A stretch of DNA of 64,000 nt. It comes from an uncultured Bacilli bacterium. Its GTDB lineage: Bacteria; Bacillota_I; Bacilli_A; RF39; UBA660. The notes beneath the pieces are model-generated. The model did no database searches, was not told the DNA's origin, and saw only the letters and a list, made by a program, of their open reading frames with translations. Where the stretch lies: positions 290,571-354,570 of the forward strand of contig CAKOKD010000001.1 in assembly GCA_934090935.1 (NCBI GenBank). Direction: 5' to 3'. Shown in pieces: positions 3,956 through 57,599 of this stretch (the first letter of the stretch is position 1; each line of letters opens with the position of its first letter). The translations under genes and the position numbers were made by a program.

Positions 3956-4172
3956 TGTAAAGCAATTGATGAAGACGTTAAATAATGATTTTTTATAGAG
4001 AAGCTGTGGGTGGTGCAAACAGTTAAAAATAGTTATTTAAGAATCACTTCTAATGCGACTTAGGGATAAGCTAAGTACGTTTACTGCGTTAAAGTTAATA
4101 AAGTGTGAATTACATTCATAAAATAGGATGGTACCACGGACTTGTTCGTTCCTATGTTATGGATGTTTTTTT
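3956..4172 (+). promoter_or_regulatory. T-box riboswitch leader of ileS
   Basis: Conserved T-box sequence AAATAGGATGGTACCACGG at 4122-4139 followed by a U-run (4165-4172) before the ileS RBS. ileS is a classical T-box-regulated gene in Firmicutes. Stem I, specifier and terminator pairing were not resolved by eye. Confidence 0.6.
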
Positions 4173-4190
4173 ATTGGAAAGGAAATGGTT

Positions 4191-7100
4191 ATGAAAAATT
4201 TTAAAGAACTTGATAAGAGAAAAGCAAGTGAAGTAGAAGAAAGTATCTTAGAAACTTGGAAAAAAGAAGATATTTTAAATGAAACAATTAAAAATAGAAA
4301 AAATGGAAAAAATTGGGTATTCTATGATGGACCAATATATGCAAATGCTAAACCTGGAATTCATCATGTTCTTGCTAAAACAATTAAAGATTCATTTTGT
4401 AAATATCATACAATGAAAGGCGAAAGAGTTTTAAGAAAAATTGGACTTGATACTCATGGACTTCCAATTGAAGTTAATGTAGAAAAGAAGCTTGGTTTTA
4501 AAACAAAAGCTGATATTGAAGCGTTTGGTGTTGAAAATTTCTGCCGTGAATGTAATAAAGCAACAGCATTAAATATTGATGAAATAAATGCTGTTACGGA
4601 TAAAATGGGTCAATTTATTGATTGTGAACATCCTTATGTAACTTGTTCAAATGAATATATTGAATCTGAATGGTGGATTATAAAAGAAATGGACAAAAAA
4701 GGACTTTTATACCATGGTAATAAAGTTTTATGGTATTGTCCTAGATGTGGAACAGAACTTTCTCAAAATGAGGTTTCACAAGGTTATGAAGAAACAAGTG
4801 TTAATACTGTAATCGTACCTTTAAAAAGAGTTGATGCGGATGAATATTTTCTTGCTTGGACTACAACTCCTTGGACTTTAATGGCAAACGTTGCTATATG
4901 TGTTAATCCAGAACTTACTTACATAAAAGTATTATCTCAAGGATACAAATTTATTTTAGCTTCTGCTTTAGCTTCAAAAGTATTAGGTGAAGATTATGAA
5001 GTTCTTGAAACTTATAAGGGATCTGATTTAGTAGGAATAAAATATAAGCAATTGATGCCTTTTGTTCATGTTGAAGGAAAATGTCATGAAGTAATAGCAG
5101 ATAATTATGTTACTGCTGAAGATGGTACAGGAATAGTTCATATTGCACCTGCTTATGGTGAAGATGATAATCGTGTATGTCGTGAAAATGGCATTGGTTT
5201 TGTAAATCCAGTTGGATTAGATGGATGTTATACTGAAGGACCATGGAAAGGAACTTTAGTAACTGATCCTAATCTTGAAATAGAAATCATTAAGTGGTTA
5301 AAAGAAAATGATAAACTATTTAAGAAAATTAAAATAGTTCATGATTATCCTCATTGTTGGAGATGTCATTCACCACTTATAAGTTATCCAAAACCAGCTT
5401 GGTATATTAAGACAACAGCTTATAAAGATAAAATAATTGAAGAAAATAAGAAGATAAATTGGTATCCTGATTATGTTGGAAATAAACGCTTTGCTAACTG
5501 GCTTGATAATATGATTGACTGGGGAATTTCTAGAAATAGATATTGGGGTTGTCCTCTTCCAGTTTGGACTTGTTCATGTGGTAATAAGTGTGTTGTCGGA
5601 TCAATTGATGAATTACAAGAGCTAGTAATTGAAGATGTTGATGTTAGAAAGATGGAATTACATCGTCCTTATGTTGATGAACTTCATGTTAAATGTGATA
5701 AATGTGGAAAATCTATGGATAGAGTCAAAGATGTATTAGATGTTTGGTTCGATTCTGGAGCTATGCCATACGCTCAATATCATTATCCATTTGAAAATAA
5801 AGAATTATTTGAAAGCCAATTCCCAGCTGATTTTATAGCTGAAGGACTTGATCAAACTCGTGGATGGTTCTATGTTTTACTTGTAATTTCAACAATAATT
5901 TCTGGTGAATCTAGTTTTAAAAACGTTGTTGTAAACGATATGGTTCTTGACGGATTTGGTAAAAAGATGAGTAAATCAACTGGTAATATAGTTGATCCTA
6001 TAAATGAGTTGGATGAATACGGTGCAGATATAGTTAGATGGTATATGCTTTCAGTCTCTCCTGTATGGACACCTTTAAAATATGATTCAAAAGGTTGTAG
6101 AGAAGTTCATTCAAAATTCTTTAATCCATTTAAAAACACTTATACATTCTTCCAAACTTATGCTAATATTGATGGAATAGATACAGATGAATGTGATGTT
6201 GCTTATGAAGATCGTGAAGAAATAGATAAATGGCTTTTATCTAAATATAATAAACTAGTTAAAAATGTTACTGATGCTTATGAAGCATATGACTTAAATC
6301 AAGTAGTTAAACAAATAACTTCATTTGTTTCAGAAGATTTATCTAACTGGTATATAAGAAGAAATAGAAATAGATTTTGGAGTAGTGAACTTGATAATTC
6401 TAAAAAATCTGTATACATAACTACTTATGAAGTTTTAATTGGTTTATGTGGATTATGTGCTCCAGTTATTCCTTATATAACTGAAGAAATATACAAGAAT
6501 TTAACTGGTGAGAAATCAGTTCATTTAAGCGATTTCCCTAAATATGATGAAAATTTAATCAATGAAGAAATTGAAGTTAAAATGGATTTAGTAAGAGATT
6601 TAATTTCTACAGGAAGATATGTTCGTGAAGAAACTAAGATAAAAGTGCGTCAACCATTAAGTGAAGCTTTAATTGATGGAAAATATGAAAGTATTTTAGG
6701 AAACTTAGTAAGTTTAATCAATGAAGAATTAAATGTTAAAAAAGTTACTTTTGTTGATGATTTATCTAAATATATGAATTTTACAATTAAACCAAACTTT
6801 AAAGTATGTGGATCTATGTTCGGATCTAAGATGGGCCTTTATAGTGAAACTTTGAAAAATTTAAGTTTAGATGATGAAGAGGCTTTATTGAAAGAAGAAA
6901 CTATTACAGTAGACTTTAATGGTGAAAGACTTGATATAACACCTGAAATGGTTGATGTTAGAATCGATGCTAAGGAAGGATTCAATGTTGGTATGGAAAA
7001 TAATAAATTTATTATTCTAAATACTGAACTTACTCGTGATCTTTTACTTGAAGGTCTTGCTCGTGAATTTGTATCTAAAGTTCAAAATATGAGAAAAACA

Positions 7101-7292
7101 AGTGGGTTAAATATTGAAGATAGAATTAAACTTTATTTCTATGGTGATGATGAAGTAAATGATGCTTTAATAATGTTTAAAGATTATGTTAAAGAAGAAA
7201 CATTAGCAGTAGTTTACGAAGAAAAAGAAAGTGGAGAAGTTGTGGATATCAACGGCCATGACGTTATAATATCAATAGAAAAGAGTGAATAA
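4191..7292 (+). CDS. ileS: isoleucyl-tRNA synthetase (long, type-2-like form)
   Basis: HIGH-like PGIHHVLAKT, KMSKSTGN, a zinc-knuckle CPRCG...CSCG, about 1030 aa. The track start at 4128 lies inside the leader; ATG 4191 (MKNFKELDK) with AAAGGAAA RBS is preferred. Confidence 0.93.
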   Translation: MKNFKELDKRKASEVEESILETWKKEDILNETIKNRKNGKNWVFYDGPIYANAKPGIHHVLAKTIKDSFCKYHTMKGERVLRKIGLDTHGLPIEVNVEKKLGFKTKADIEAFGVENFCRECNKATALNIDEINAVTDKMGQFIDCEHPYVTCSNEYIESEWWIIKEMDKKGLLYHGNKVLWYCPRCGTELSQNEVSQGYEETSVNTVIVPLKRVDADEYFLAWTTTPWTLMANVAICVNPELTYIKVLSQGYKFILASALASKVLGEDYEVLETYKGSDLVGIKYKQLMPFVHVEGKCHEVIADNYVTAEDGTGIVHIAPAYGEDDNRVCRENGIGFVNPVGLDGCYTEGPWKGTLVTDPNLEIEIIKWLKENDKLFKKIKIVHDYPHCWRCHSPLISYPKPAWYIKTTAYKDKIIEENKKINWYPDYVGNKRFANWLDNMIDWGISRNRYWGCPLPVWTCSCGNKCVVGSIDELQELVIEDVDVRKMELHRPYVDELHVKCDKCGKSMDRVKDVLDVWFDSGAMPYAQYHYPFENKELFESQFPADFIAEGLDQTRGWFYVLLVISTIISGESSFKNVVVNDMVLDGFGKKMSKSTGNIVDPINELDEYGADIVRWYMLSVSPVWTPLKYDSKGCREVHSKFFNPFKNTYTFFQTYANIDGIDTDECDVAYEDREEIDKWLLSKYNKLVKNVTDAYEAYDLNQVVKQITSFVSEDLSNWYIRRNRNRFWSSELDNSKKSVYITTYEVLIGLCGLCAPVIPYITEEIYKNLTGEKSVHLSDFPKYDENLINEEIEVKMDLVRDLISTGRYVREETKIKVRQPLSEALIDGKYESILGNLVSLINEELNVKKVTFVDDLSKYMNFTIKPNFKVCGSMFGSKMGLYSETLKNLSLDDEEALLKEETITVDFNGERLDITPEMVDVRIDAKEGFNVGMENNKFIILNTELTRDLLLEGLAREFVSKVQNMRKTSGLNIEDRIKLYFYGDDEVNDALIMFKDYVKEETLAVVYEEKESGEVVDINGHDVIISIEKSE

Positions 7293-7303
7293 CTCTTTTT
7301 TTT
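7279..7303 (+). terminator. intrinsic terminator of ileS (hairpin AGAGTGAATAACTCT plus T8), contiguous with the left end of cassette R1
   Basis: The inverted repeat spans the ileS stop codon and is followed by TTTTTTTT (7296-7303). Confidence 0.65.
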
Positions 7304-7345
7304 ATGCTTTCTAGGTTCTAATTTTGTCGACATTTGTCGGATTTA

Positions 7346-7373
7346 TTGACAATGAAAATTAACTATATATAAT
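7346..7373 (+). promoter_or_regulatory. consensus sigma-A promoter inside R1 (TTGACA-16-TATAAT), immediately preceded by the TGTCGACA palindrome
   Basis: TTGACA 7346-7351, TATAAT 7368-7373. TTGTCGACATTTGTCGG at 7324-7340 is a candidate operator. Confidence 0.6.
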
Positions 7374-7469
7374 ACAAACTCGAGAAGCAGAAAAAGATGC
7401 TTATCACTTCCAAACTAGAGGCTAAATTATTCGGGGTTTTGGTTAAGGAGTACGAGAGGAAGTGATACG

Positions 7470-7547
7470 ATGAAGAAGGATAATCAAATAAGATTACTTT
7501 ATCTAATCGTTTTTATATTGTTAATAGTAATTCTAAAATTATTATAG
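7470..7547 (+). CDS. small hydrophobic peptide (25 aa, MKKDNQIRLLYLIVFILLIVILKLL), candidate type I toxin
   Basis: ATG preceded by GAGGAAGTGATACG. The SD region GGAAGTGATA is complementary to upstream TATCACTTCC, predicting SD sequestration. ORF conserved in all three R copies. Confidence 0.5.
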   Translation: MKKDNQIRLLYLIVFILLIVILKLL

Positions 7548-7551
7548 CAAC

Positions 7552-7640
7552 AAAAAAAAGCATCTTTATTCTACTGAATAAGGATGCTACACCCATAAGT
7601 GGTAAGCATCAGCCTCAAAAGAAACTTCTGCTTCTCACTA
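7552..7640 (-). ncRNA. putative antisense sRNA (antitoxin candidate) convergent to the small ORF
   Basis: On the minus strand a TATATT -10 sits about 7 nt upstream of GTGAGAAGCAG, with a -35-like TTACAT 17 nt further up. The transcript would end at hairpin GCATCCTTATTCAGTAGAATAAAGATGC plus U8. The + strand has an A-run before this hairpin and no U-run after it, so it terminates minus-strand transcription only. Confidence 0.4.
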
Positions 7641-7750
7641 AATTAAATATAGCATAATCAAAATAAAATGTAAATATTTACACATAATAGTATTGTTATA
7701 CCGAATAAAAAATTAATCTATGGTACAATTAAAATAGAATGGTGTGTATT

Positions 7751-9061
7751 ATGAAGAGAAAGAGTGCATTAGTATTTACAATTTTATTATTAGCGGTGGG
7801 ATTTGCTGCCGTGTCAACAACTTTAGTAATAAATGGGTCTGCAAAAGTAAGTGAAAATACAGAGGATTTTTCTGTAATATTTACCAAGGCTTCATTAGAT
7901 GGAACAGATGTATATGCAAATATAGTTGATGATACTAAAAAGATAATAAATTTTTCAACAAATGAATTAAAGACAATAAATCAAACAAGTGTGTTAAATT
8001 ATGAAGTAACAAATAATTCAAGCAATTATGATGCTGAAGTTCAAGTAACTTGTAAATTAAAAGATGGTGGGTCTGCTAAATATACAAGTATCAAAAATGA
8101 ACTAGAAGGAAATGCAACAATTGTAAAAGCCAAAGAAAGCTTAAATGGAACATTAACAGTTAACTTAAAAAAAACTGCTACAGAAGAAGTAAATGAACAA
8201 TATGTTTGTGAACTAACGTTTAATGCAGTAGAGAGAACTCAGTTGGGAAATAATCCAGCTATTGATAAGCTAATATCTTTAGCTAATTCTGAGGAAATAA
8301 ATTCATATGAAAATGGAAATAAAAATCAATTATATGTTTTTAATCATGAGCAAACTAAACAAACAGAAGCCCTAAGCGACTATCGTTTTATTGGCGATAA
8401 TCCATATAATTATATAAAGTTTAGTGGTGAAACATGGAGAATATTAGGTATCTTTGATATTGATGGAGAAAAAAAGATTAAAATAATAAAAAATGATACT
8501 TTGGATAGTTCATACGCTTGGGATACTAACGGAAAAAATAATTTTATAATTTCAAGTTTAAATAATTATTTAAATGAAAATTATTATGAAACTTTGGATA
8601 AAAATTATATATCAAAAACAAAAATCTACTTAGGTGGAACTGATATGATGCAATATGTAAAGGCAAATGAATGGTATAGTCATGAAAGAAGTAATAAAGT
8701 GTATTCTGGAAACCCAAGTTATTATAATGACGCATATGTTTCTTTAATGTATCCATCGGATTTTGCTTATACTTATGCCTATGGAATTGACAATGAGTGT
8801 TTTAATAATGGATTTGGATGTGATGTTTCATCAGGAAGAACTAATAGTTGGATGTATATTGGTAAAAATATGGAAGCATTTATAACTCCTGATTCAAGTT
8901 CAAGTAATCAAATTTATAGAATGAATTCTTCCAGTGGTTATAATAAAAGTACATCTTCAACTTTAATGTATATAAGACCAGTTGTATATTTAAATAGCAA
9001 TGTGAAATTTATTTCAGGAGATGGATCAAGCACAAATCCTTATAAATTAGATACAAATTAG
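7751..9061 (+). CDS. secreted family member A: conserved N-terminal module plus lectin-like C-terminal domain
   Basis: Probable start MKRKSALVFTILLLAVGFAAV (the track's 7739 start adds MVCI). N-module is highly similar to the 14603 and 56406 genes (FSVIFTKASLDG.DVY..VDDTKKII.F......QTSVLNYEVTNNSSNYDAEV.VTC...YVCELTFNAVER). C-terminus ...WMYIG...YIRPVVYL...GSSTNPYKLDTN. Own promoter with extended -10 TGGTACAAT; no poly-G. Confidence 0.8.
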   Translation: MKRKSALVFTILLLAVGFAAVSTTLVINGSAKVSENTEDFSVIFTKASLDGTDVYANIVDDTKKIINFSTNELKTINQTSVLNYEVTNNSSNYDAEVQVTCKLKDGGSAKYTSIKNELEGNATIVKAKESLNGTLTVNLKKTATEEVNEQYVCELTFNAVERTQLGNNPAIDKLISLANSEEINSYENGNKNQLYVFNHEQTKQTEALSDYRFIGDNPYNYIKFSGETWRILGIFDIDGEKKIKIIKNDTLDSSYAWDTNGKNNFIISSLNNYLNENYYETLDKNYISKTKIYLGGTDMMQYVKANEWYSHERSNKVYSGNPSYYNDAYVSLMYPSDFAYTYAYGIDNECFNNGFGCDVSSGRTNSWMYIGKNMEAFITPDSSSSNQIYRMNSSSGYNKSTSSTLMYIRPVVYLNSNVKFISGDGSSTNPYKLDTN

Positions 9062-9206: not shown

Positions 9207-9240
9207 TTGACAATCGGGGGGGGTATTATAAAATAAAAAT
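9207..9240 (+). promoter_or_regulatory. family promoter with a G8 homopolymer in the spacer (TTGACA-atc-G8-TATTATAAAATA)
   Basis: G-run at 9216-9223 between a -35-like TTGACA (9207-9212) and an A/T-rich -10 region. Same architecture at 14547, 34011 and 56354. Confidence 0.6.
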
Positions 9241-9257: not shown

Positions 9258-10019
9258 ATGAAGAAAAGTGCAATAATAGTTGTAATTGTTTTTATGATGA
9301 TTGGATTTGCAGCAGTAAGTACGTCATTAATAATAAATAGTAATATAAAAGTATCAAAGAATGAAACGGACTTTGATGTATATTTTTCAAAGGCAAGATT
9401 GGATACAAAAGATGTATATGAAAGTGTAATAAGTCAAGATAAAAAGACAATAATATTTAATACAAATAATTTAAGTAAAGTAGGAGATAAACAGTACTAA
9501 CATATGAAGTAACAAATAATTCAAACAACAAGGAACTTCATTAAAACAAAATGGTACATATACAAGAATGTATGATACTGAGATTGGATATTTAGCAAGT
9601 ACATCAAGAAATATAAGTGGAATATATGATATGTCCGGTGGAGCACATGAATATATGTCAGTATATACCTTAGATAACTCTGATAATAGTGGAATAACTT
9701 TTACAAATTATGGCTCAAAGTATTATGATGTTTATAATGAATCGAGTATGACAACCAGTTACCAATGTAGAATATTAGGAGATGCAACGGAGAAATGGGG
9801 CCATTTACAACTTTGAAATCAATTGAAAGCAATAGCAGTATAAAAAGATATGTATCAAGTCGGTTTGCATCCTATGCATATTTTGTTTCCTCTTCAAGTC
9901 CATTTTTTGCACGCGGTGGTGATTATGGGCATGGTATATTTGCTGGGCAACTTTATTTTGGTGGTGCTTCTGGAGAAGCATATAGCTATGTTGGTTTTCG
10001 TCTAGTTTTAACACCTTAA
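9258..10019 (+). pseudogene. chimeric, frameshifted family pseudogene D (N-module of the 56406 type fused to the C-terminal region of the 57608 type)
   Basis: 9258-9500 encodes MKKSAIIVVIVFMMIGFAAVSTSLIIN... then stops. TYEVTNNSNN follows out of frame. 9568-10019 in two frames matches the C-terminus of the 57608 protein (TENISGVYDMSGG.HEY...YQ.RILGDAT...GFRLVLTP). Confidence 0.8.
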
Positions 10020-10030
10020 TAAAGGATGTT

Positions 10031-10061
10031 TCAATAGAAAAGAGTGAATAACTCTTTTTTT
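10031..10061 (+). repeat. 31-bp exact direct duplicate of the ileS 3' end and terminator (7272-7302)
   Basis: TCAATAGAAAAGAGTGAATAACTCTTTTTTT occurs at 7272-7302 and again at 10031-10061, bracketing R1 + gene A + pseudogene D. Confidence 0.85.
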
Positions 10062-10105
10062 CATGTATAAATGATGCTATAATAATAATAGAATAGAGGG
10101 TAATT

Positions 10106-14546: not shown

Positions 14547-14582
14547 TTGAAAATCGGGGGGGGGTATTATAAAATAAAAAAG
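14547..14582 (+). promoter_or_regulatory. family promoter with a G9 homopolymer (TTGAAA-atc-G9-TATTATAAAATA)
   Basis: G-run at 14556-14564. Confidence 0.6.
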
Positions 14583-14602: not shown

Positions 14603-16114
14603 ATGAAAAAGAAGAGTATGCTTATAGTAGCAATTATATTAATGTCAATTGGATTTGCTAGCATTTCAACGACATTAATAATAAACGGGAATGCAAACGT
14701 AAGTGAAAATCAAGATGACTTTTCAGTTATCTTTACAGCTGCAACATTAGATGGAAAGGATGTATATTCATCAGTAGTAGATGATACAAAGAAGATAATA
14801 ACATTTGAAACATCAGAATTAAAAACATTAAATCAAACATCAGTATTAAATTATGAAGTAACAAATAATTCAAGCAACTATGATGCAAATGTAAATGTAA
14901 CATGTGTACCAAAGGAAGGAACAATAGCAAAATATACAAGCATCAAAAATAAATTAGAAAACGAAGCAACAGTTGTAAAAGCAAAAAGTTCAGTAAATGG
15001 AACATTAACAGTAACACTAGATAAGGTAGCAACTGAAGCAGTTACAGAAGAATATACATGTAAGTTAGAATTTAATGCAGTCGAAAGAACTGAAATTGCA
15101 GTAGGAACAACTAATTTATATAATTTAATAAAAAATAATGCTGATACTAAAACCGTAATAGATTATAAGGTACGTTCAGGAGTAAGTGGAACAAATGGAA
15201 TATATACAACAACTGCTACTGAAGGTAATGTACCAGTATATTATTATAGAGGAGCAGCTGATAAAGTAAATAATAATATAATATTTAATAATATGTGTTG
15301 GAAGATAATAAGAACAACTGAAAACAATGGAGTAAAACTAATATATAACGGAACACCAACAGATGGCAAATGTGAAACTCAAACAGGAGAAGCAACTCAA
15401 ATAGGAACAAGTGCATTTAATACAAATTATACCGATAATGCATATGTTGGCTATATGTATGGAACAGCAGGAAGCAACACCTATGCAGCAACTCATGCAA
15501 ATACAAATGACTCAACAATAAAAACATATATAGATAATTGGTATAAAGCTAATTTTGATGAAATAACAACATCAAAATTGGAAGATACAGTATTCTGTAA
15601 TGATAGAAGTACAAAAGCATATGATGCAAAGACAATTGGAGAAACTTCCTTTTCATCCTTTGGTTCATTAGGATATGGGAAAAGTGCATCATTGTATGGA
15701 GCAGCACATCGAGCATCATATTGGTCGAACAATCCAAATCCAAGTTTAGTGTGTCAAAATCAAAATGATAAATTTACCGTAGATAGTAAAAATGGAAACG
15801 GAAAACTAACATATCCAGTTGGATTAATAACATTAGATGAGGTAGTGCTTGCAGGATTTAATACAAAATATTCCAATACAGGTGATTATGATGATGTAAC
15901 AAATTACTTATATACAAATAGCATTTATTGGACATTCTCCCCTGTGATGCTGGATGCTCGTGGTTATGCTTGTGTTGGTTATGTCTATAGTGCTGGCTAT
16001 GTGCACTATGACTATGTGGGCGGTGCTCGTGGGGTCCGTCCAGTAGTTTCGCTTATCAGTGGCACACTTGTAACTGGTTCTGGTACAACAACTAACCCAT
16101 ATGTGGTTGAATAA
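14603..16114 (+). CDS. secreted family member B: conserved N-module plus longer lectin-like C-terminal domain
   Basis: MKKKSMLIVAIILMSIGFASISTTLIINGNANVSEN...VTCVPK...YTCKLEFNAVER. C-terminus ...WKIIRTTENNGVKLIYNG...LITLDEVVLAG...YWTFSPV...GVRPVVSLISG...GTTTNPYVVE. Confidence 0.85.
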   Translation: MKKKSMLIVAIILMSIGFASISTTLIINGNANVSENQDDFSVIFTAATLDGKDVYSSVVDDTKKIITFETSELKTLNQTSVLNYEVTNNSSNYDANVNVTCVPKEGTIAKYTSIKNKLENEATVVKAKSSVNGTLTVTLDKVATEAVTEEYTCKLEFNAVERTEIAVGTTNLYNLIKNNADTKTVIDYKVRSGVSGTNGIYTTTATEGNVPVYYYRGAADKVNNNIIFNNMCWKIIRTTENNGVKLIYNGTPTDGKCETQTGEATQIGTSAFNTNYTDNAYVGYMYGTAGSNTYAATHANTNDSTIKTYIDNWYKANFDEITTSKLEDTVFCNDRSTKAYDAKTIGETSFSSFGSLGYGKSASLYGAAHRASYWSNNPNPSLVCQNQNDKFTVDSKNGNGKLTYPVGLITLDEVVLAGFNTKYSNTGDYDDVTNYLYTNSIYWTFSPVMLDARGYACVGYVYSAGYVHYDYVGGARGVRPVVSLISGTLVTGSGTTTNPYVVE

Positions 16115-24478: not shown

Positions 24479-24698
24479 ATTTATAACAATATAAATTAAA
24501 ATGACTATAATTAAGAGTGTATAACTCTTTTTTTTGTATTTTAGGTTCTAATTTTGTCGACATTTGTCGAGTTTGTTGACAAGAAAAATTAACTATATAT
24601 AATAACCAATTGAGAAGCAGAGAAAGATGCTTATCACTTCCAACTAGAGGCTAAATATTCAGGGTTTTGGTTAAAGGAGTACTAGAGGAAGTGATACG

Positions 24699-24776
24699 AT
24701 GAAAAAAGATAATCATATAAGATTACTTTACTTAATCGTTTTAATATTGCTAGTAATAATTTTAAAATTATTATAG
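24699..24776 (+). CDS. small hydrophobic peptide (25 aa, MKKDNHIRLLYLIVLILLVIILKLL), candidate type I toxin, copy 2
   Basis: Same RBS-sequestering arrangement as R1. Confidence 0.5.
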   Translation: MKKDNHIRLLYLIVLILLVIILKLL

Positions 24777-24863
24777 GAAAAAAAGCATCTTTATTCTACT
24801 GAATAAGGATGCTACAACAAACACGTGGTAAGCATCGGCCTCAAAAGGAACTTTTGCTTCTCA
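24777..24863 (-). ncRNA. putative antisense sRNA, copy 2
   Basis: Minus-strand TTGAAA-17-TATATT upstream of GTGAGAAGCAAAAG; ends at the conserved hairpin plus U-run. Confidence 0.4.
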
Positions 24864-24917
24864 CTAAATAAAATATAACATTTTTTAAAAGTGTTTTCAA
24901 TATATAAGGTAATAATT

Positions 24918-24982
24918 ATGCTTATAGTAGCAATATTACTAATGAAGATGGAACAAGTACAAATCCATATGTAGTTTTATAA
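24918..24982 (+). pseudogene. ghost of a family gene: start fragment MLIVAILLM fused to the C-terminal remnant DGTSTNPYVVL*
   Basis: ATGCTTATAGTAGCAATATTACTAATG matches codons about 6-14 of the 14603-type gene. GATGGAACAAGTACAAATCCATATGTAGTTTTATAA in another frame matches the family C-terminal tail (GTTTNPYVVE). Confidence 0.7.
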
Positions 24983-33497: not shown

Positions 33498-33670
33498 GTG
33501 TTTTATTTTTTTAGGTTCTAATTTTGTCGACATTTGTCGGATTTATTGACAAGGTAAATAAAGTATATATAATACAAACTCGAGAAGCAGAAAAAGATGC
33601 TTATCACTTCCAAACTAGAGGCTAAATTATTCGGGGTTTTGGTTAAAGGAGTACGAGAGGAAGTGATACG

Positions 33671-33754
33671 ATGAAAAAAGATAATCATATAAGATTACTT
33701 TATCTAATCGTTTTTATATTGTTAATAATAATTTTAAAATTATTATGTCAATAA
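33671..33754 (+). CDS. small hydrophobic peptide (27 aa, MKKDNHIRLLYLIVFILLIIILKLLCQ), candidate type I toxin, copy 3
   Basis: Conserved ORF, RBS paired with the upstream TATCACTTCC. Confidence 0.5.
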   Translation: MKKDNHIRLLYLIVFILLIIILKLLCQ

Positions 33755-33838
33755 AAAAAGCATCTTTATTCTACTGAATAAGGATGCACCGCAAAATGTG
33801 GTAAGCATCAGCCTCAAAAGAAAACTTCTGCTTCTCAC
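33753..33838 (-). ncRNA. putative antisense sRNA, copy 3
   Basis: Minus-strand TTGTAA-17-TATATT then GTGAGAAGCAG; ends at the hairpin plus U7. Confidence 0.4.
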
Positions 33839-33895
33839 TAAAATAAATATAACATTTTTCAATATAAATTACAATGATAATAAATAAATACACTT

Positions 33896-34010
33896 TACGC
33901 ATAATAAAAATGAATATGCAAAATACAACGAAAATGTTGTATAATATAAGATATAATACAACTGCAAAATAAAACAGACGACAAAAGTTATGTAAAACAA
34001 GACAATGCCC
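33896..34010 (+). promoter_or_regulatory. conserved AT-rich leader shared with the 56241-56353 region (contains TGTTGTATAATAT, a possible second promoter)
   Basis: CATAATAAAAATGAATAT.CAAAA.ACA...AAAATGTTGTATAATATAAGA...GACGACAAAAGT.ATGTAAAACAA...AATGCCC is conserved between 33896-34010 and 56241-56353. Confidence 0.45.
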
Positions 34011-34045
34011 TTGAAAATCGGGGGGGGTATTATAAAATAAAAAAG
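34011..34045 (+). promoter_or_regulatory. family promoter with a G8 homopolymer (TTGAAA-atc-G8-TATTATAAAATA)
   Basis: G-run at 34020-34027. Confidence 0.6.
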
Positions 34046-34065: not shown

Positions 34066-36180
34066 ATGAAGAAAACGACAATAATGCTAGTTACTGTTTT
34101 ATTTATGATAATAGGATATGCAGCATATAATGCAACTGTAAATATATATGGATTAGGTAAGATATCAGAAAATATAAGTGACTTTAAGGTATATTTAGAT
34201 AATTTAAAAGTAAATGATACAGAAAATACAGGAATAAATGATGTAAAAGATGAATTTACAATAGATAATGTAAATGGAAAAATAAGTGTAGATATAGTAA
34301 ATGATTCAACAGAATATGATACAGAAAGTTATCTTGAGTGTGCAAGTATAGTAACACCAGATAAAACTGAATGGAGATTTGATTATACAGGTGCTGAACA
34401 AACATTTACAGCACCAATGTCTGGAACATATAAGCTTGAGACATGGGGAGCTCAAGGTGGAAGTGTTGGAAACTATACTGGTGGCTATGGGTCATATTCA
34501 ATAGGTGATTTATATTTAACACAAAATAGTAAAATTTATATTAATATTGGTGGAGCTGGTACAACTGGAAAATTGGATGCATCATTTGTTGTAACTCCTG
34601 GTGGCTATAATGGAGGTGGAATAAATACTTCAGATGTCTATGGTTATGGAGCTACGGGCGGAGGAGCGACTCATATATCTACAACATCAGGTCTACTTTC
34701 AGAAAATGCGAATAATTTATCAAACTTATTAATCGTATCTGGAGGCGGCGGAGGAAGTGGGCAAGAAAGTGGATTAGGATATTGCTATGGAGGTTCCGCT
34801 GGAGGAATATCAAGCACCAAAGGTTATTCTAATCCAAATCGATATTATGCTCCAGGCGATGTTGGTACTCAAACAACAGGTTTTGCATTTGGTAAAGGCG
34901 GAGATTCAAAATCTTGGCTTGGATCCGGTGGAGCAGGTTTATATGGAGGCTATTCTGGATGTGGAGGCGCGGGAGGCTCGAGTTATATCGGAAACTCACT
35001 CTTAACAGAAAAATCAATGTACTGTTATAATTGTACTGAATCAACTGAAGAATCAACACGAACTATAAGTACTACATGCACAAGTGCAACACCAACCGAA
35101 AACTGTGCAAAACAAGGTAATGGATATGCACGTATTACTCTAGTTTCAAGTGACGAAATAGAAAAAATATCAACAGAAGTGGTAACTATAGAAGCCCAAG
35201 ATAAGAAAAAAGTAACCTTAGAAAATATAAATACAGGCAGTTTAACTTGTAAGTTAAAAGTTAATAAATTATCACGAACAACTAAAGAGGAAAAATATAT
35301 AGGTCCAACAGAATGGACATTTGATTATACAGGAAGCGAGCAAACTTTTACAGTACCAATAAGTGGAACATACAAGCTTGAAACATGGGGAGCACAAGGT
35401 GGAAATGCTATTTATACAAATTATAGTGGTACTGGTGGTAAAGGATCATATGCAGGTGGAGTAATTGAATTTAATGCAAACACAAAAATATATGTTTATG
35501 TTGGTGGAAAAGGTACGAATGGCAATAATTCAAGAGCCGCTACTTTAATTGAGGGTGGTTACAATGGAGGAGGTAACAATCAATCTTTAGATTCTGCATC
35601 ACCTGCTGGAGGCGGAGCAACCGATATTAGATTAACAAATGGATTATGGAATAACTTTGATTCTCTTAAATCTAGAATAATGGTTGCTGGAGCTGGAGGC
35701 GGATCTGGAATAGAGAATGTAGGTGCTCCAGGAGGATTGAATGCTGGAGTCTATGGAACTCTATATGGAGGAAACGGAACTTCAACTTCAGGTGGAGCAG
35801 CTGGTACTGGATATAGCCACAATAGTGGAGCAACAAACGGAACATTTGGAGTTGGTGGAAACGGTGGACGATATATCACAGGAGCTGGAGGTAGTGGTTA
35901 CTATGGCGGAGGCGGAGGAAATCATTATTCGCCAGCTACCTCCGGAGGTGGAGGCGGCGGTTCTTCTTTCATCTCAGGACATGACGGATGTGATGCAATA
36001 TCCGAAAACTCTACAGCATCAAATATAATACATACAGGTCAATCTATACATTATAGTGGATATTATTTTACTCAAACTATAATGAAGTCTGGAGACGAAA
36101 CAATGCCAAGTCATGATGGGAAAAGCACTATGACAGGAAATAGTGGTAATGGATACGCACGTATTACGTTAATAAAATAA
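34066..36180 (+). CDS. secreted glycine-rich repeat protein (family-type leader plus short N-module plus two tandem Gly-rich modules)
   Basis: MKKTTIMLVTVLFMIIGYAAY leader. Two repeats each start EW.FDYTG.EQTFT.P.SGTYKLETWGAQGG and end GNGYARITL. Runs of GGGGG, GGATDIRL and VAGAGGGSG. Confidence 0.8.
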   Translation: MKKTTIMLVTVLFMIIGYAAYNATVNIYGLGKISENISDFKVYLDNLKVNDTENTGINDVKDEFTIDNVNGKISVDIVNDSTEYDTESYLECASIVTPDKTEWRFDYTGAEQTFTAPMSGTYKLETWGAQGGSVGNYTGGYGSYSIGDLYLTQNSKIYINIGGAGTTGKLDASFVVTPGGYNGGGINTSDVYGYGATGGGATHISTTSGLLSENANNLSNLLIVSGGGGGSGQESGLGYCYGGSAGGISSTKGYSNPNRYYAPGDVGTQTTGFAFGKGGDSKSWLGSGGAGLYGGYSGCGGAGGSSYIGNSLLTEKSMYCYNCTESTEESTRTISTTCTSATPTENCAKQGNGYARITLVSSDEIEKISTEVVTIEAQDKKKVTLENINTGSLTCKLKVNKLSRTTKEEKYIGPTEWTFDYTGSEQTFTVPISGTYKLETWGAQGGNAIYTNYSGTGGKGSYAGGVIEFNANTKIYVYVGGKGTNGNNSRAATLIEGGYNGGGNNQSLDSASPAGGGATDIRLTNGLWNNFDSLKSRIMVAGAGGGSGIENVGAPGGLNAGVYGTLYGGNGTSTSGGAAGTGYSHNSGATNGTFGVGGNGGRYITGAGGSGYYGGGGGNHYSPATSGGGGGGSSFISGHDGCDAISENSTASNIIHTGQSIHYSGYYFTQTIMKSGDETMPSHDGKSTMTGNSGNGYARITLIK

Positions 36181-37152: not shown

Positions 37153-37213
37153 CACCAATATTAGTATACAATTTTTTACAATTCTTGCATAGACTAAATT
37201 AGGAGGTATGATT

Positions 37214-37729
37214 ATGGCCTATTACAAAGAGATTGTAACTAAAGCCGTTATTGGAAAGGGTAAAAAAACAAAAAGTGAAGAATATGTTATAACAACGGAT
37301 GAAAAAATTGACAATGTACTTGGATGTTGGGTAATAAATCATAATTTTAGAGGATCTATTGTGAATAATTCTATCATCGTAAATGGAAGTTATGATGTTA
37401 ATATCTGGTATTCTTATAACAATAATACTAAGACGAATGTTATGATTAAAAAATTTAATTATGAATACCCTATGAATGTTAGTTTAAAAGAAAATTCATC
37501 CCTAACTAAGGATTCAGAGATTATTGTAAGGACGCTTTCTCAACCAAGTGTAGTTGATGTTAATATAGATGGACTTGATATCCATTTAACAATCGAAAAG
37601 CAATTAGGAGTAGAAGTTATTGGTGATACAACCGTAAGAGTAAGTGTTGAAGACACATTTGATGATTATGAAGAAATCGAAGAAAATACGATGGACGAAA
37701 TCGATGTTACTGATGATTATTTAAAATAA
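37214..37729 (+). CDS. cotE: spore coat morphogenetic protein CotE-like
   Basis: YKEIVTKAVIGKGKK...LGCWVINH...YDVNIWYSYNNNTKTNV... parallels B. subtilis CotE (YREIITKAVVAKGRK...GGWIINH...YDINVWYSY.DNTKTEV), with an acidic C-terminus. AGGAGG RBS 7 nt before ATG 37214. Confidence 0.75.
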   Translation: MAYYKEIVTKAVIGKGKKTKSEEYVITTDEKIDNVLGCWVINHNFRGSIVNNSIIVNGSYDVNIWYSYNNNTKTNVMIKKFNYEYPMNVSLKENSSLTKDSEIIVRTLSQPSVVDVNIDGLDIHLTIEKQLGVEVIGDTTVRVSVEDTFDDYEEIEENTMDEIDVTDDYLK

Positions 37730-56200: not shown

Positions 56201-56240
56201 TATCTTTGATATTGCTTTTTTTATATATTTAATTTATTTA

Positions 56241-56353
56241 CACATAATAAAAATGAATATACAAAACACAACTAAAATGTTGTATAATATAAGAAACAAT
56301 AGGAGAATAAAATAAAAAAGACGACAAAAGTAATGTAAAACAAAATAATGCCC
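56241..56353 (+). promoter_or_regulatory. conserved AT-rich leader (copy of the 33896-34010 region)
   Basis: See 33896 entry. Confidence 0.45.
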
Positions 56354-56388
56354 TTGAAAATCGGGGGGGGTATTATAAAATAAAAATA
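56354..56388 (+). promoter_or_regulatory. family promoter with a G8 homopolymer (TTGAAA-atc-G8-TATTATAAAATA)
   Basis: G-run at 56363-56370. Confidence 0.6.
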
Positions 56389-56405: not shown

Positions 56406-57599
56406 ATGAAGAAAAGGAGTGCAATAATAGTTGCAATTGTTTTTATGATGATTGGATTTGCAGCAGTAAGTACGTCATTGATAATAAATGGAAATGCTAA
56501 TGTTAGCGAAAGCAATGAAGATTATTCAGTAATATTTACTAAAGCTTCATTAGATGGAGAAGATGTGTATTCAACAGCAGTAGATGATACAAAAAAGATA
56601 ATTACATTTACAAGTAAGAATCTAATGAAAGTCGGAGACACATCAACACTTACATATGAAGTAACAAATAATTCAGCAAACTATGATGCAGAAGTGCGTG
56701 TTACATGTGTACCAAAAGACGGAACAACAACAAAATATACAAGTATCAAGAATGAACTTGAAGGAAATGCAACGAAGGTATTAGCAAAAGAAAGTATAAA
56801 TGGAACATTAACAATAACACTTTCAAAACAATCAATCGAAGAAGTGAGTGAAGAATATACATGTTCGTTAGAATTCAATGCAACTGAGAGAGATGAACTT
56901 GGAGAAAATATTCAAGATCCAGTATCATTTACAACAGATTCCTGGGAGACTATTCAAAAAGCAGTTAAAATAGGAAATACAAGTAAATATAATGTAGGGG
57001 ATACAAAAGAAATAAATTTAACTAATTTTGGAACACATACAGTGCGTATATCAAATATGAGTGCATGCACAAATGGAGAAACAAGTGAAACAGCATGTGG
57101 GTTTGTAGTAGAATTTGCAGATATAATAACAAAACATACATTTAATAATACATCAACAAATGTAGGAGGTTGGAAAAATTCAGAAATACGTACATATGTA
57201 AATGGAACAATATATAATTCTTTACCAAGTGAATTACAAAATGCTATCACTTCAACAAAGGTAATATCAGGACATGGAAGTACAAGTGGAGAGACAAATT
57301 TTGAAACACAAGACAAAGTATACCTAATATCATCAAAAGAATTATACGGAACAGCGACAGTCAAAGATACTTTAAGCACTGAAACAAAGCAATTGGATTA
57401 TTATAAAAATAAAGGAGTTACTTTATTAAAATACACTGAAGCTGTAAAAAAGTATAATCTACAAGACGTAAACTGGTGGCTTCGATCAGCAACTTCCGAT
57501 ACAACAGACTTCTTTCTTGACGTAGCAACAAAGGGAGTCTGGACAAACGGAGCTTCTACTGCATTAAATGGCATTTCTCCAGCATTTAGAATAGGATAG
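56406..57599 (+). CDS. secreted family member C: conserved N-module plus lectin-like C-domain ending ...WWLRSATSD...GISPAFRIG
   Basis: TGAGGTG RBS 8 nt before ATG 56406 (the track's 56397 start is GTG). N-module is close to the 9258 pseudogene N-terminus. Confidence 0.85.
   Translation: MKKRSAIIVAIVFMMIGFAAVSTSLIINGNANVSESNEDYSVIFTKASLDGEDVYSTAVDDTKKIITFTSKNLMKVGDTSTLTYEVTNNSANYDAEVRVTCVPKDGTTTKYTSIKNELEGNATKVLAKESINGTLTITLSKQSIEEVSEEYTCSLEFNATERDELGENIQDPVSFTTDSWETIQKAVKIGNTSKYNVGDTKEINLTNFGTHTVRISNMSACTNGETSETACGFVVEFADIITKHTFNNTSTNVGGWKNSEIRTYVNGTIYNSLPSELQNAITSTKVISGHGSTSGETNFETQDKVYLISSKELYGTATVKDTLSTETKQLDYYKNKGVTLLKYTEAVKKYNLQDVNWWLRSATSDTTDFFLDVATKGVWTNGASTALNGISPAFRIG

Follow-up and report, generated by a model that had tools for sequence, protein, structure and literature searches.

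A repeated small-peptide and antisense RNA cassette in a human-gut Bacilli lineage as a possible type I toxin-antitoxin-like module

The 64-kb window analysed here, a stretch of the chromosome of an uncultured Bacilli bacterium (contig CAKOKD010000001.1), contained three copies of a cassette of about 345 bases, designated R1 (nt 7312–7655), R2 (nt 24541–24880) and R3 (nt 33521–33860), all on the plus strand. Alignment of the three copies gave 87% to 93% identity (92.7% between R1 and R3 across 358 nt, 87.4% between R1 and R2), which bears out an earlier note on this DNA that had described them as near-identical, and the repeat is real rather than a chance match. As the same note had stated, each copy preceded a locus of one gene family: R1 lay upstream of gene A (nt 7751–9061), R2 was followed by a degenerate family-gene remnant (about nt 24918) and then by a gene for a class I Trp/Tyr-type tRNA synthetase (PF00579; trpS or tyrS), and R3 was followed by a glycine-rich family gene (nt 34066–36180). 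The cassette comprised an operator-like element, a consensus promoter, a leader, a small open reading frame (ORF) for a hydrophobic peptide and a convergent antisense unit. With a confidence somewhat above even, we take it for a type I toxin-antitoxin-like module that is chromosomal, present in several copies and of a family not described before.

An exact-pattern scan recovered seven copies in three species-level genomes, namely two metagenome-assembled genomes of "uncultured Bacilli" from Hadza gut samples and Firmicutes bacterium CAG:582, and 11 copies from human-gut metagenome assemblies; two more loci were reached with the upstream-extended ORF of 50 amino acids (aa) as query, which led to a single cluster (P0001, a called ORF of 49 aa). 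After removal of duplicates, the working set held 19 full-length and three partial copies with 84% to 92% identity to R1. The search pattern corresponded to nt 7396–7411 plus nt 7458–7467 for copies L009 to L015 and to nt 7599–7621 for L016 to L026. A profile search with nhmmer revealed no further or divergent cassette in the window or in all loci beyond the known copies. Among the genomes and metagenomes scanned, copies were confined to one human-gut Bacilli lineage and lay at different points of the chromosome, behind ileS, fpg or a gene with an SPFH domain. The cassette gave no blastn match in plasmid and phage collections, and scans of viral contigs yielded eight matches of 16 to 23 nt with a 16-mer, all by chance, and none with the pattern of operator plus -35 box; residence on mobile elements is not evident. 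A reading as a transposon or miniature inverted-repeat transposable element was set aside, no terminal inverted repeats being seen when the cassette ends were read by eye.

On the plus strand of R1, the operator-like element TAGGTTCTAATTTTGTCGACATTTGTCGG (nt 7312–7340; R2, nt 24542–24570; R3, nt 33512–33540) was located upstream of the -35 box and contained the palindrome TGTCGACA and a direct repeat, TGTCG[A/G], with a 10-bp period. The palindrome occurred three times in the window against 0.21 expected and the 17-mer TTTGTCGACATTTGTCG three times against 0.06 expected, both only in cassettes; the palindrome had been described before as abutting the -35 box, whereas it lies 13 nt upstream of it. 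Near-invariant at 93% pairwise identity (17 copies), the element is a candidate regulator binding site; the LexA (Cheo) and CodY boxes were poor matches. The promoter TTGACA-16-TATAAT (nt 7346–7373; R2, nt 24576–24603; R3, nt 33546–33573), of sigma-70 type, matched the consensus hexamers at 12 of 12 positions in all three copies, as previously read, and transcription is predicted to start at about nt 7380–7382. The sequences of L027 and L028 became homologous to the remaining copies about 10 nt upstream of this predicted start site, and in both the same transcribed core stood behind an unrelated promoter region, TTGAAA-N16-TTAAAT with TG, without the TGTCGACA element. This arrangement points to promoter-module swapping at the transcript boundary, and because the same core is carried behind a different promoter, the operator-like element is a swappable accessory, dispensable for the core, and the predicted start site a real boundary. 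The L027 (nt 4900–5000) and L028 (nt 2150–2250) copies sit downstream of an fpg-like gene.

The small ORF of R1 (nt 7470–7547, plus strand) encodes a 25-aa peptide, MKKDNQIRLLYLIVFILLIVILKLL, and its counterparts in R2 (nt 24699–24776) and R3 (nt 33671–33754) encode peptides of 25 and 27 aa, respectively. Charges are N-terminal (MKKDNQIR), followed by a mostly aliphatic run of 17 residues, LLYLIVFILLIVILKLL, with one predicted transmembrane helix, and by a C-terminus KLL with short, variable, mostly uncharged extensions, so that the architecture proposed in the earlier note, a charged N-terminus and a single hydrophobic helix, was found in all three copies. A Pfam search with three peptide variants at E up to 10 found no family, the only match being a meaningless one to Sec61_beta at E = 0.7.

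Sixteen of the 19 full copies possessed an intact ORF, of 25 to 36 aa, with an ATG or TTG start codon and a Shine-Dalgarno sequence 8 to 10 nt upstream of each; in four copies an extra T before the start changed ATG to an in-frame TTG at unchanged Shine-Dalgarno spacing. L011, L014, L016 and L024 carried a different N-terminal part, 17 nt longer and with the frame restored (MFKKSFKQDVLNVIFITIIFILLIIILKLL). Overall, the frame was kept through three kinds of indel, including shifts of the stop codon. Among 12 distinct "standard" ORFs, 15 single-site variants were observed, of which nine were synonymous, six conservative (Q/H, F/L, A/V/T/I) and none a stop, compared with 5 synonymous, 8 non-synonymous and 2 stop, and 2, 13 and 0, for the same variants in the two alternative frames (P about 0.03, by resampling that preserved transition and transversion numbers); all non-synonymous changes within the hydrophobic run stayed among I, V, A, T, L and F. 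L022 and L026 (identical to L021) had a common 1-nt deletion that breaks the N-terminal part, and a new ATG in the original frame keeps the hydrophobic part open (M[L/I]YLI[I/V]FILL...). L025 had lost the frame, the stop codon and one antisense -10 base and looks dead. Conservation of the ORF in orthologous cassettes, on which the earlier note had let its proposal depend, therefore mostly holds, in view of the 16 intact copies and the synonymous bias, but not cleanly, given the three damaged ones. L011 is the positional ortholog of R1 (flanking ileS 94% identical); relative to nt 7470–7510, about 45 nt for the N-terminal half of its peptide were replaced and the surrounding RNA elements were the same, which would reflect either a localised recombination patch or a diversifying change of the peptide.

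The antisense promoter was located on the minus strand at nt 7646–7674 (-35 box TTTACA, nt 7674–7669; TG, nt 7654–7653; -10 box TATATT, nt 7651–7646; R2, nt 24900–24872; R3, nt 33874–33846). R1 to R3 had TTTACA, TTGAAA or TTGTAA as -35 box and shared the 17-nt spacer and TATATT that had been recognised before, together with a TG-extended -10 in all three. Across 17 distinct versions, TGn was present in 17 and TATATT in 16, the -35 box was always TTGTAA, TTGAAA, TTTACA or TTAAAA at the fixed 17-nt spacing, and the flanks fell into unrelated classes. Variation was seen at the "n" of TGn and in the stretch from the -10 box to the start site; conservation thus follows TGnTATATT position by position, as a promoter predicts. 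Transcription is predicted to start at about nt 7638–7639 and to yield an RNA of about 87 nt (85 to 89 nt across copies) that ends at a putative intrinsic terminator (nt 7552–7587, minus strand; R2, nt 24785–24812; R3, nt 33760–33787), composed of a hairpin (nt 7560–7587) and a U tail, U8 in R1 and U7-8 over the copies. On the plus strand, A8 (nt 7552–7559) precedes the hairpin, in agreement with the proposal that it terminates the minus-strand RNA; the further claim that the hairpin overlaps the 3′ end of the ORF was mistaken, the stop codon lying 5 to 13 nt upstream of the hairpin, so that the antisense RNA would cover the 3′ untranslated region (UTR) of the mRNA only. The hairpin, which falls outside both search patterns, was invariant in 27 of 28 columns (17 copies) and was the predicted 3′ hairpin of the antisense RNA in all copies.

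Between the terminator and the 5′ stem-loop domain of the antisense RNA (nt 7599–7639, minus strand; 98% identity) was a hypervariable linker (nt 7588–7598), single-stranded in the antisense folds, with 46% pairwise identity versus 98% in the flanking blocks. The identity of nt 7599–7639 stems partly from the metagenome search pattern, and the region was also invariant in copies found with the other pattern. Nearly all copies were predicted to fold into a 42-nt compound 5′ stem-loop, the single-stranded variable linker and the terminator hairpin, and two conserved blocks split by a hypervariable linker argue for selection, not recent copying. Evidence on the strand was mixed: in the inner stem of the 5′ domain, two pairs are G.U in the minus-strand RNA and would become C.A mismatches in the plus-strand RNA, the terminator stem is mismatched (C.A) at one position of the minus-strand RNA where the plus-strand RNA has a U.G wobble, and two substitutions unique to R2 break antisense-stem pairs. 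Rfam, at the gathering score over the whole window and at E up to 10 on nt 7250–7750, gave only the ileS T-box and chance matches, those on nt 7250–7750 all being by chance (snoRNAs, and BTnc201 at 18 bits); the models for TxpA/RatA, BsrG/SR4, BsrE/SR5, Fst/RNAII, SprA1as and other antitoxins in Rfam gave no match.

In minimum-free-energy and consensus folds, the 5′ segment of the mRNA (nt 7382–7411, plus strand) supplies the 5′ strands of two long-distance helices and the anti-Shine-Dalgarno strand of a third. In helix P1, GAGAAGCAGAA (nt 7382–7392) pairs with TTCTGCTTCTC (nt 7626–7636) over 11 bp; in P2, GATGCTTAT (nt 7396–7404) pairs with GTAAGCATC (nt 7602–7610) over 9 to 12 bp, the 3′ strands of both being the plus-strand side of the antisense 5′ domain; and in P3, CACTTCC (nt 7405–7411) pairs with the Shine-Dalgarno sequence GGAAGTG (nt 7458–7464). 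The complementarity of the leader to the Shine-Dalgarno region had been pointed out in the earlier note and was confirmed, the anti-Shine-Dalgarno (TAT)CACTTCC, that is TATCACTTCC at nt 7402–7411, being complementary to GGAAGTGATA at nt 7458–7467 and predicted to pair with it; the pairing between the mRNA ends, stacked on P3, was absent from that account. The fold of nt 7378–7645 had an energy of -79.7 kcal/mol (z = -7.4 against shuffles), both strands folded far better than shuffled controls, and RNAalifold on 17 copies placed P1, P2 and P3 in a stacked junction, with a pairing probability of about 1.0 between the 5′ segment and the 3′ UTR in 16 of the 17. The seven pairs of P3 were paired in 96.6% of cells, with one-sided, wobble-compatible changes only; all one-sided changes in P1 and most in P2 and P3 were A-to-G or C-to-U transitions that keep a plus-strand wobble. 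Since UAUCAC can pair alternatively with GUGAUA on the Shine-Dalgarno side or GUGGUA on the 3′ side, the junction could migrate. When nt 7554–7639 were forced single-stranded as a mimic of the antisense-bound state, a full anti-Shine-Dalgarno helix of 9 to 10 bp was predicted, with a probability of 0.00 to 0.03 that the Shine-Dalgarno is unpaired, in all intact copies keeping GGAAGUGAUA; in L023, where the region reads GGAAGUAUAA, it was half open (0.48). For the full-length RNA without antisense binding, the prediction divided the copies about equally into closed (0.01) and partly open (0.46 to 0.72), with R1 and R2 among the latter.

Five genes of the window, at nt 7751–9061 (gene A), 9258–9500, 14603–16114, 34066–36180 and 56406–57599, belong to the family that adjoins the cassettes. 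Their products share a conserved, signal-peptide-like N-terminus (MKKKSAIIIAIILMSIGFAAVSTTLIING...; …IGFAAVSTTLIINGNAKVSEN.EDF…) and have variable C-terminal parts with DUF6273 or a glycine-rich domain of the ALK/LTK type, the only domains that NCBIfam and Pfam recognised in these proteins, with no NCBIfam name; the member at nt 9258–9500 is truncated (80 aa). The family looks like a variable repertoire of surface or secreted proteins. Its genes share a conserved promoter, TTGA[A/C]AATC-G(n)-TATTATAAAAT, with a poly-G tract within the spacer between the -35 and -10 boxes, an arrangement classically associated with phase variation of promoter strength by strand slippage. Such tracts were found at nt 9216–9223, 14556–14564, 34020–34027 and 56363–56370, that is, on the genes at nt 9258, 14603, 34066 and 56406, and in L010, L013, L014, L016, L023 and L027; the tract length was 8 in most copies, 9 at nt 14556 and 7 in L027. 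Two family genes, of which just one is preceded by a cassette, shared a 150-nt upstream region, 89% identical between nt 33894–34043 and nt 56237–56386, which has a -10-like box, TTGTATAAT, and may be a second promoter or leader. Within the glycine-rich gene, an internal repeat of about 100 to 220 nt (nt 34365–34465 versus nt 35307–35407; 72% to 84% identity) suggests a domain duplication.

At least 400 nt of downstream sequence was available for 17 distinct copies; in 15 of these a same-strand family gene followed within 100 to 270 nt, and cassette and family gene stood together at differing places relative to conserved neighbours among the genomes. The two exceptions were R2, with its decayed family gene, and L026, which precedes an ABC ATPase gene. 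The "ghost" gene that the earlier note had placed at nt 24918 is recognisable as a family remnant (nt 24918–24975): its ORF starts with MLIVAILLM, which equals residues 6 to 14 of the intact family proteins of L010, L016 and L023, before diverging, and nt 24939–24975 match L018 at 95%. Because R2 is fully intact though its downstream family gene has decayed, the cassette may be maintained autonomously.

The surroundings are those of a core chromosome, with a G+C content of 26% to 30% and annotated genes that include ileS with a T-box leader, rpsD, ezrA, gltX, tyrS, a sigma factor gene, cotE and the gene for RNase J; no recombinase or phage gene was seen among the annotated genes of the window. 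The T-box leader (nt 3957–4156; Rfam RF00230, 100 bits) upstream of ileS (nt 4128–7292) is ordinary. Its nearest relatives in the databases carry the labels "uncultured Bacilli" or Firmicutes CAG:582, and the Firmicute lineage is probably spore-forming, since a homolog of the outer spore coat protein CotE is encoded at nt 37208–37729 (E = 2e-43). A terminator, AAGAGTG[A/T]ATAACTC-T8, precedes R1 (nt 7272–7306) and R2 (nt 24513–24536) and recurs at nt 10031–10065 (97% identity over 35 nt); it may travel with the cassette, because several cassettes of other genomes are also preceded by it.

The favoured interpretation, a type I toxin-antitoxin-like module, would work as follows. From the consensus promoter, an mRNA would be made whose first nucleotides pair with its own 3′ UTR (P1 and P2), and the adjacent segment CACUUCC would pair with the Shine-Dalgarno GGAAGUG (P3). 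With the 5′ end buried in P1 and the Shine-Dalgarno in P3, the peptide of 25 to 36 aa would be made from the folded RNA rarely, if at all. From the extended -10 promoter on the minus strand, an RNA of about 87 nt would arise whose full complementarity to the 3′ UTR of the mRNA extends to the 3′ strands of P1 and P2; by pairing there, it would displace the mRNA's own 5′ end from both helices, and the freed 5′ segment would then lock the Shine-Dalgarno in the manner of SR4 acting on bsrG, a mechanism suggested here by folding energies close to balance. The long duplex of mRNA and antisense RNA would be a substrate for RNase III. We infer that both RNAs are made and pair in vivo, that the peptide inserts into the membrane and is harmful in excess, and that the nuclease involved is RNase III. 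The mRNA, having no intrinsic terminator, probably runs on into the neighbouring family gene, so that the module may also influence or stabilise that secreted-protein locus.

This interpretation fits every computational test run, and the repeat, both promoters, the terminator, the maintenance of the ORF and the predicted folds on which it is built derive from sequence and comparative analysis. Several observations weigh against it. No plus-strand intrinsic terminator was found before the next gene, even in a permissive search for AU-rich terminators, and in R1 the interval from the stop codon to gene A lacks even a run of four T; the upstream genes of this genome end in canonical hairpin-T8 terminators. 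Toxin mRNAs as defined in T1TAdb are about 150 to 400 nt long and carry an ORF of 20 to 60 aa (PMC8594479); the cassette ORF, at 25 to 36 aa, falls in that range, and a discrete mRNA of the stated size is here a prediction at the 5′ end (about nt 7381) only. The tight linkage to family genes, in 15 of 17 copies, is not explained by a plain toxin-antitoxin role and leaves room for the cassette as a regulatory leader. Three of the 19 ORFs are damaged, N-terminally truncated in L022 and L026 and dead in L025, in copies that keep the RNA features. The charges of the peptide are N-terminal, whereas a charged C-terminus is usual among type I toxins of Gram-positive bacteria (PMC6563280). The predicted Shine-Dalgarno "switch" is not robust, since about half of the copies are closed even in models of the RNA free of antisense. 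Compensatory change, searched for among the 59 predicted pairs, was found in none, so that support for the fold is thermodynamic and from one-sided, wobble-compatible changes. Finally, there is ascertainment bias, as each search pattern imposes identity on the stretch that it covers. What the earlier note had proposed as a type I module is thus partly supported, with the missing terminator, the damaged ORFs, the lack of covariation and the family linkage standing against it.

Some of these observations would be expected if the cassette were an antisense-controlled 5′ leader, or a gene for a small membrane protein, that serves the downstream family gene, the peptide not being a toxin and the ORF, fold and antisense RNA tuning read-through or transcript stability from the consensus promoter. 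We regard this as unlikely, and it survives best among the alternatives. The absent plus-strand terminator, the same-strand family gene within 100 to 270 nt in 15 of 17 copies, the relocation of cassette and family gene as a unit to various chromosomal sites and the retention of RNA features in copies with a damaged ORF all suit it, as does gene A, which lacks the G-tract promoter of the other family genes and for which a promoter scan upstream found no separate promoter. However, most family genes own a conserved promoter, and those at nt 9258, 14603 and 56406 are cassette-free; R2 is perfectly kept beside a dead family gene, and L026 stands upstream of an ABC ATPase gene. No significant complementarity to family-gene 5′ regions was found for either RNA: when the antisense RNA and the 5′ UTR were run against those of five family genes, z was -2.1 to +1.2, driven by U/A runs and not convincing. 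Moreover, the ORF has a coding signature, and the heavy, multilayer repression predicted for it is typical of harmful products.

In a combination of both views, a toxin-antitoxin-like RNA pair would have been taken over to gate the expression of contingency loci, making the cassette an "addiction plus regulation" module for a variable surface-protein repertoire. Transcription from the consensus promoter, with no terminator on the peptide mRNA to stop it, would run through the cassette into the phase-variable secreted-protein gene next to it, survival of the read-through transcript would be decided by the antisense RNA and the 5′-3′ fold, and the toxin would penalise loss of the locus by recombination between family genes. 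This combination is doubtful.

It is improbable that the functional products are non-coding only, with a structured plus-strand RNA of about 260 nt and/or the minus-strand small RNA of about 87 nt acting in trans and the ORF incidental. Such a view accommodates the better conservation of the RNA blocks (nt 7560–7587 and 7599–7639, 98%, versus 87% for the ORF), the damage to the ORF in three copies and the folding of both strands far beyond shuffled controls, but leaves aside that the frame survives three kinds of indel, that the new in-frame ATG of L022 and L026 retains the hydrophobic part, that variants are biased to synonymous with zero stop codons, and that a Shine-Dalgarno at the correct spacing is, by prediction, specifically sequestered; nor was there a match to an Rfam family or a trans target among the neighbouring 5′ regions. 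Very improbable, finally, is an invertible DNA switch of the cwpV type, in which the inverted repeats GAGAAGCAGAA/TTCTGCTTCTC and GATGCTTAnCAC flank a segment of about 230 bp whose inversion would turn the hairpin and U8 terminator against transcription from the consensus promoter, so stopping read-through into the surface-protein gene: the segment is bounded by inverted repeats with the promoter outside them, the terminator works in one orientation only, the observed orientation has no plus-strand terminator and the cassette lies upstream of a putative surface or secreted family, as in cwpV (PMC2784873), but all 11 copies found with the strand-neutral pattern inside the right repeat were colinear with R1 and none of 22 overall was inverted (a count from consensus assemblies, which could hide inversion if orientation is strongly biased), the repeats consist of two parts, with 14 nt inserted on one side, no recombinase domain was found among the annotated ORFs of the 64-kb window (such recombinases need not be linked), and the ORF signature, the Shine-Dalgarno pairing and the antisense promoter outside the repeats would all go unexplained.

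[quoted passage not shown] If confirmed, the toxin-antitoxin-like module proposed here would be a new family in an uncultured, probably spore-forming Firmicute lineage of the human gut, in which the small size of the ORF, under the gene-calling limit, accounts for the lack of any annotated type I system. Being found almost constantly at the start of secreted-protein gene clusters with poly-G promoters, it would allow a tie between a toxin-antitoxin module and contingency loci to be tested.

Compared with known systems, the cassette resembles bsrG/SR4 and txpA/RatA of B. subtilis in its Gram-positive host, in combining the mRNA of a small hydrophobic peptide with a convergent antisense RNA, in the pairing of the two RNAs through their 3′ ends (predicted for the cassette), in an antisense RNA with its own promoter and terminator hairpin and in a Shine-Dalgarno that lies in a helix. 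For bsrG/SR4, it has been shown experimentally that binding of the antisense RNA at the 3′ end lengthens the Shine-Dalgarno helix from 4 to 8 bp (PMC3834814, PMC6562991), and an effect of the same kind was predicted by folding in about half of the cassette copies. In the two B. subtilis systems the antisense RNA also overlaps the ORF (PMC8594479), whereas the overlap in the cassette is confined to the 3′ UTR; the peptides are of 38 and 59 aa versus 25 aa in the cassette, where the charges are N-terminal; and, unlike them, the cassette has a toxin mRNA without terminator and resides in the core chromosome beside secreted-protein family genes rather than in a prophage. Neither the RNAs nor the peptide had sequence homology to Fst, TxpA, BsrG, RatA or SR4 in Rfam and Pfam, so that the likeness to txpA/RatA and bsrG/SR4 drawn in the earlier note applies to the organisation but not to family membership. 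The predicted lock between the mRNA 5′ end and 3′ region, with sequestration of the Shine-Dalgarno, is shared with hok/Sok and aapA1/IsoA1, such a long-distance interaction being a hallmark of hok/aapA1-type systems (PMC6733600, PMC9841398). Those systems are Gram-negative, from a different phylum and without sequence homology to the cassette, and their antisense RNAs target the 5′ or ORF region, only after 3′ processing, whereas that of the cassette would target the 3′ strands of the long-distance helices. If confirmed, an RNA of about 260 nt would thus unite a 5′-3′ lock of the hok/aapA1 kind with a 3′-binding antisense RNA of the bsrG/SR4 kind.

Fst/RNAII (par) and SprA1/SprA1as are likewise Gram-positive and have a 3′-side antisense RNA that spares the ORF (PMC8594479), but their functional pairing takes place outside the overlap, at the 5′ end or the ribosome binding site, whereas that of the cassette would lie within the overlap, as in bsrG/SR4 and txpA/RatA; unlike theirs, the antisense RNA of the cassette resembles the mRNA 5′ end rather than complementing it, and the peptide has neither the Fst-type signature nor a Pfam match. 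CD2517.1/RCd8 and others in C. difficile are convergent pairs of a gut Firmicute co-located, like the cassette, with one kind of locus (PMC5961336, PMC6563280), which is a CRISPR array there and a secreted-protein gene family here; their toxins, of 34 to 59 aa with lysine-rich C-termini, have no homology to the cassette peptide. With cwpV of C. difficile, the cassette has in common a promoter, a repeat-flanked segment and a one-orientation terminator upstream of a surface-protein gene (PMC2784873); unlike cwpV, it has a maintained ORF with Shine-Dalgarno, an antisense promoter outside the repeats and no inverted copy observed. By its organisation, the cassette would belong with the Gram-positive families whose antisense RNA is on the 3′ side (PMC8594479). 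It is probably a new family of a known kind of system, and nothing in it contradicts current understanding.

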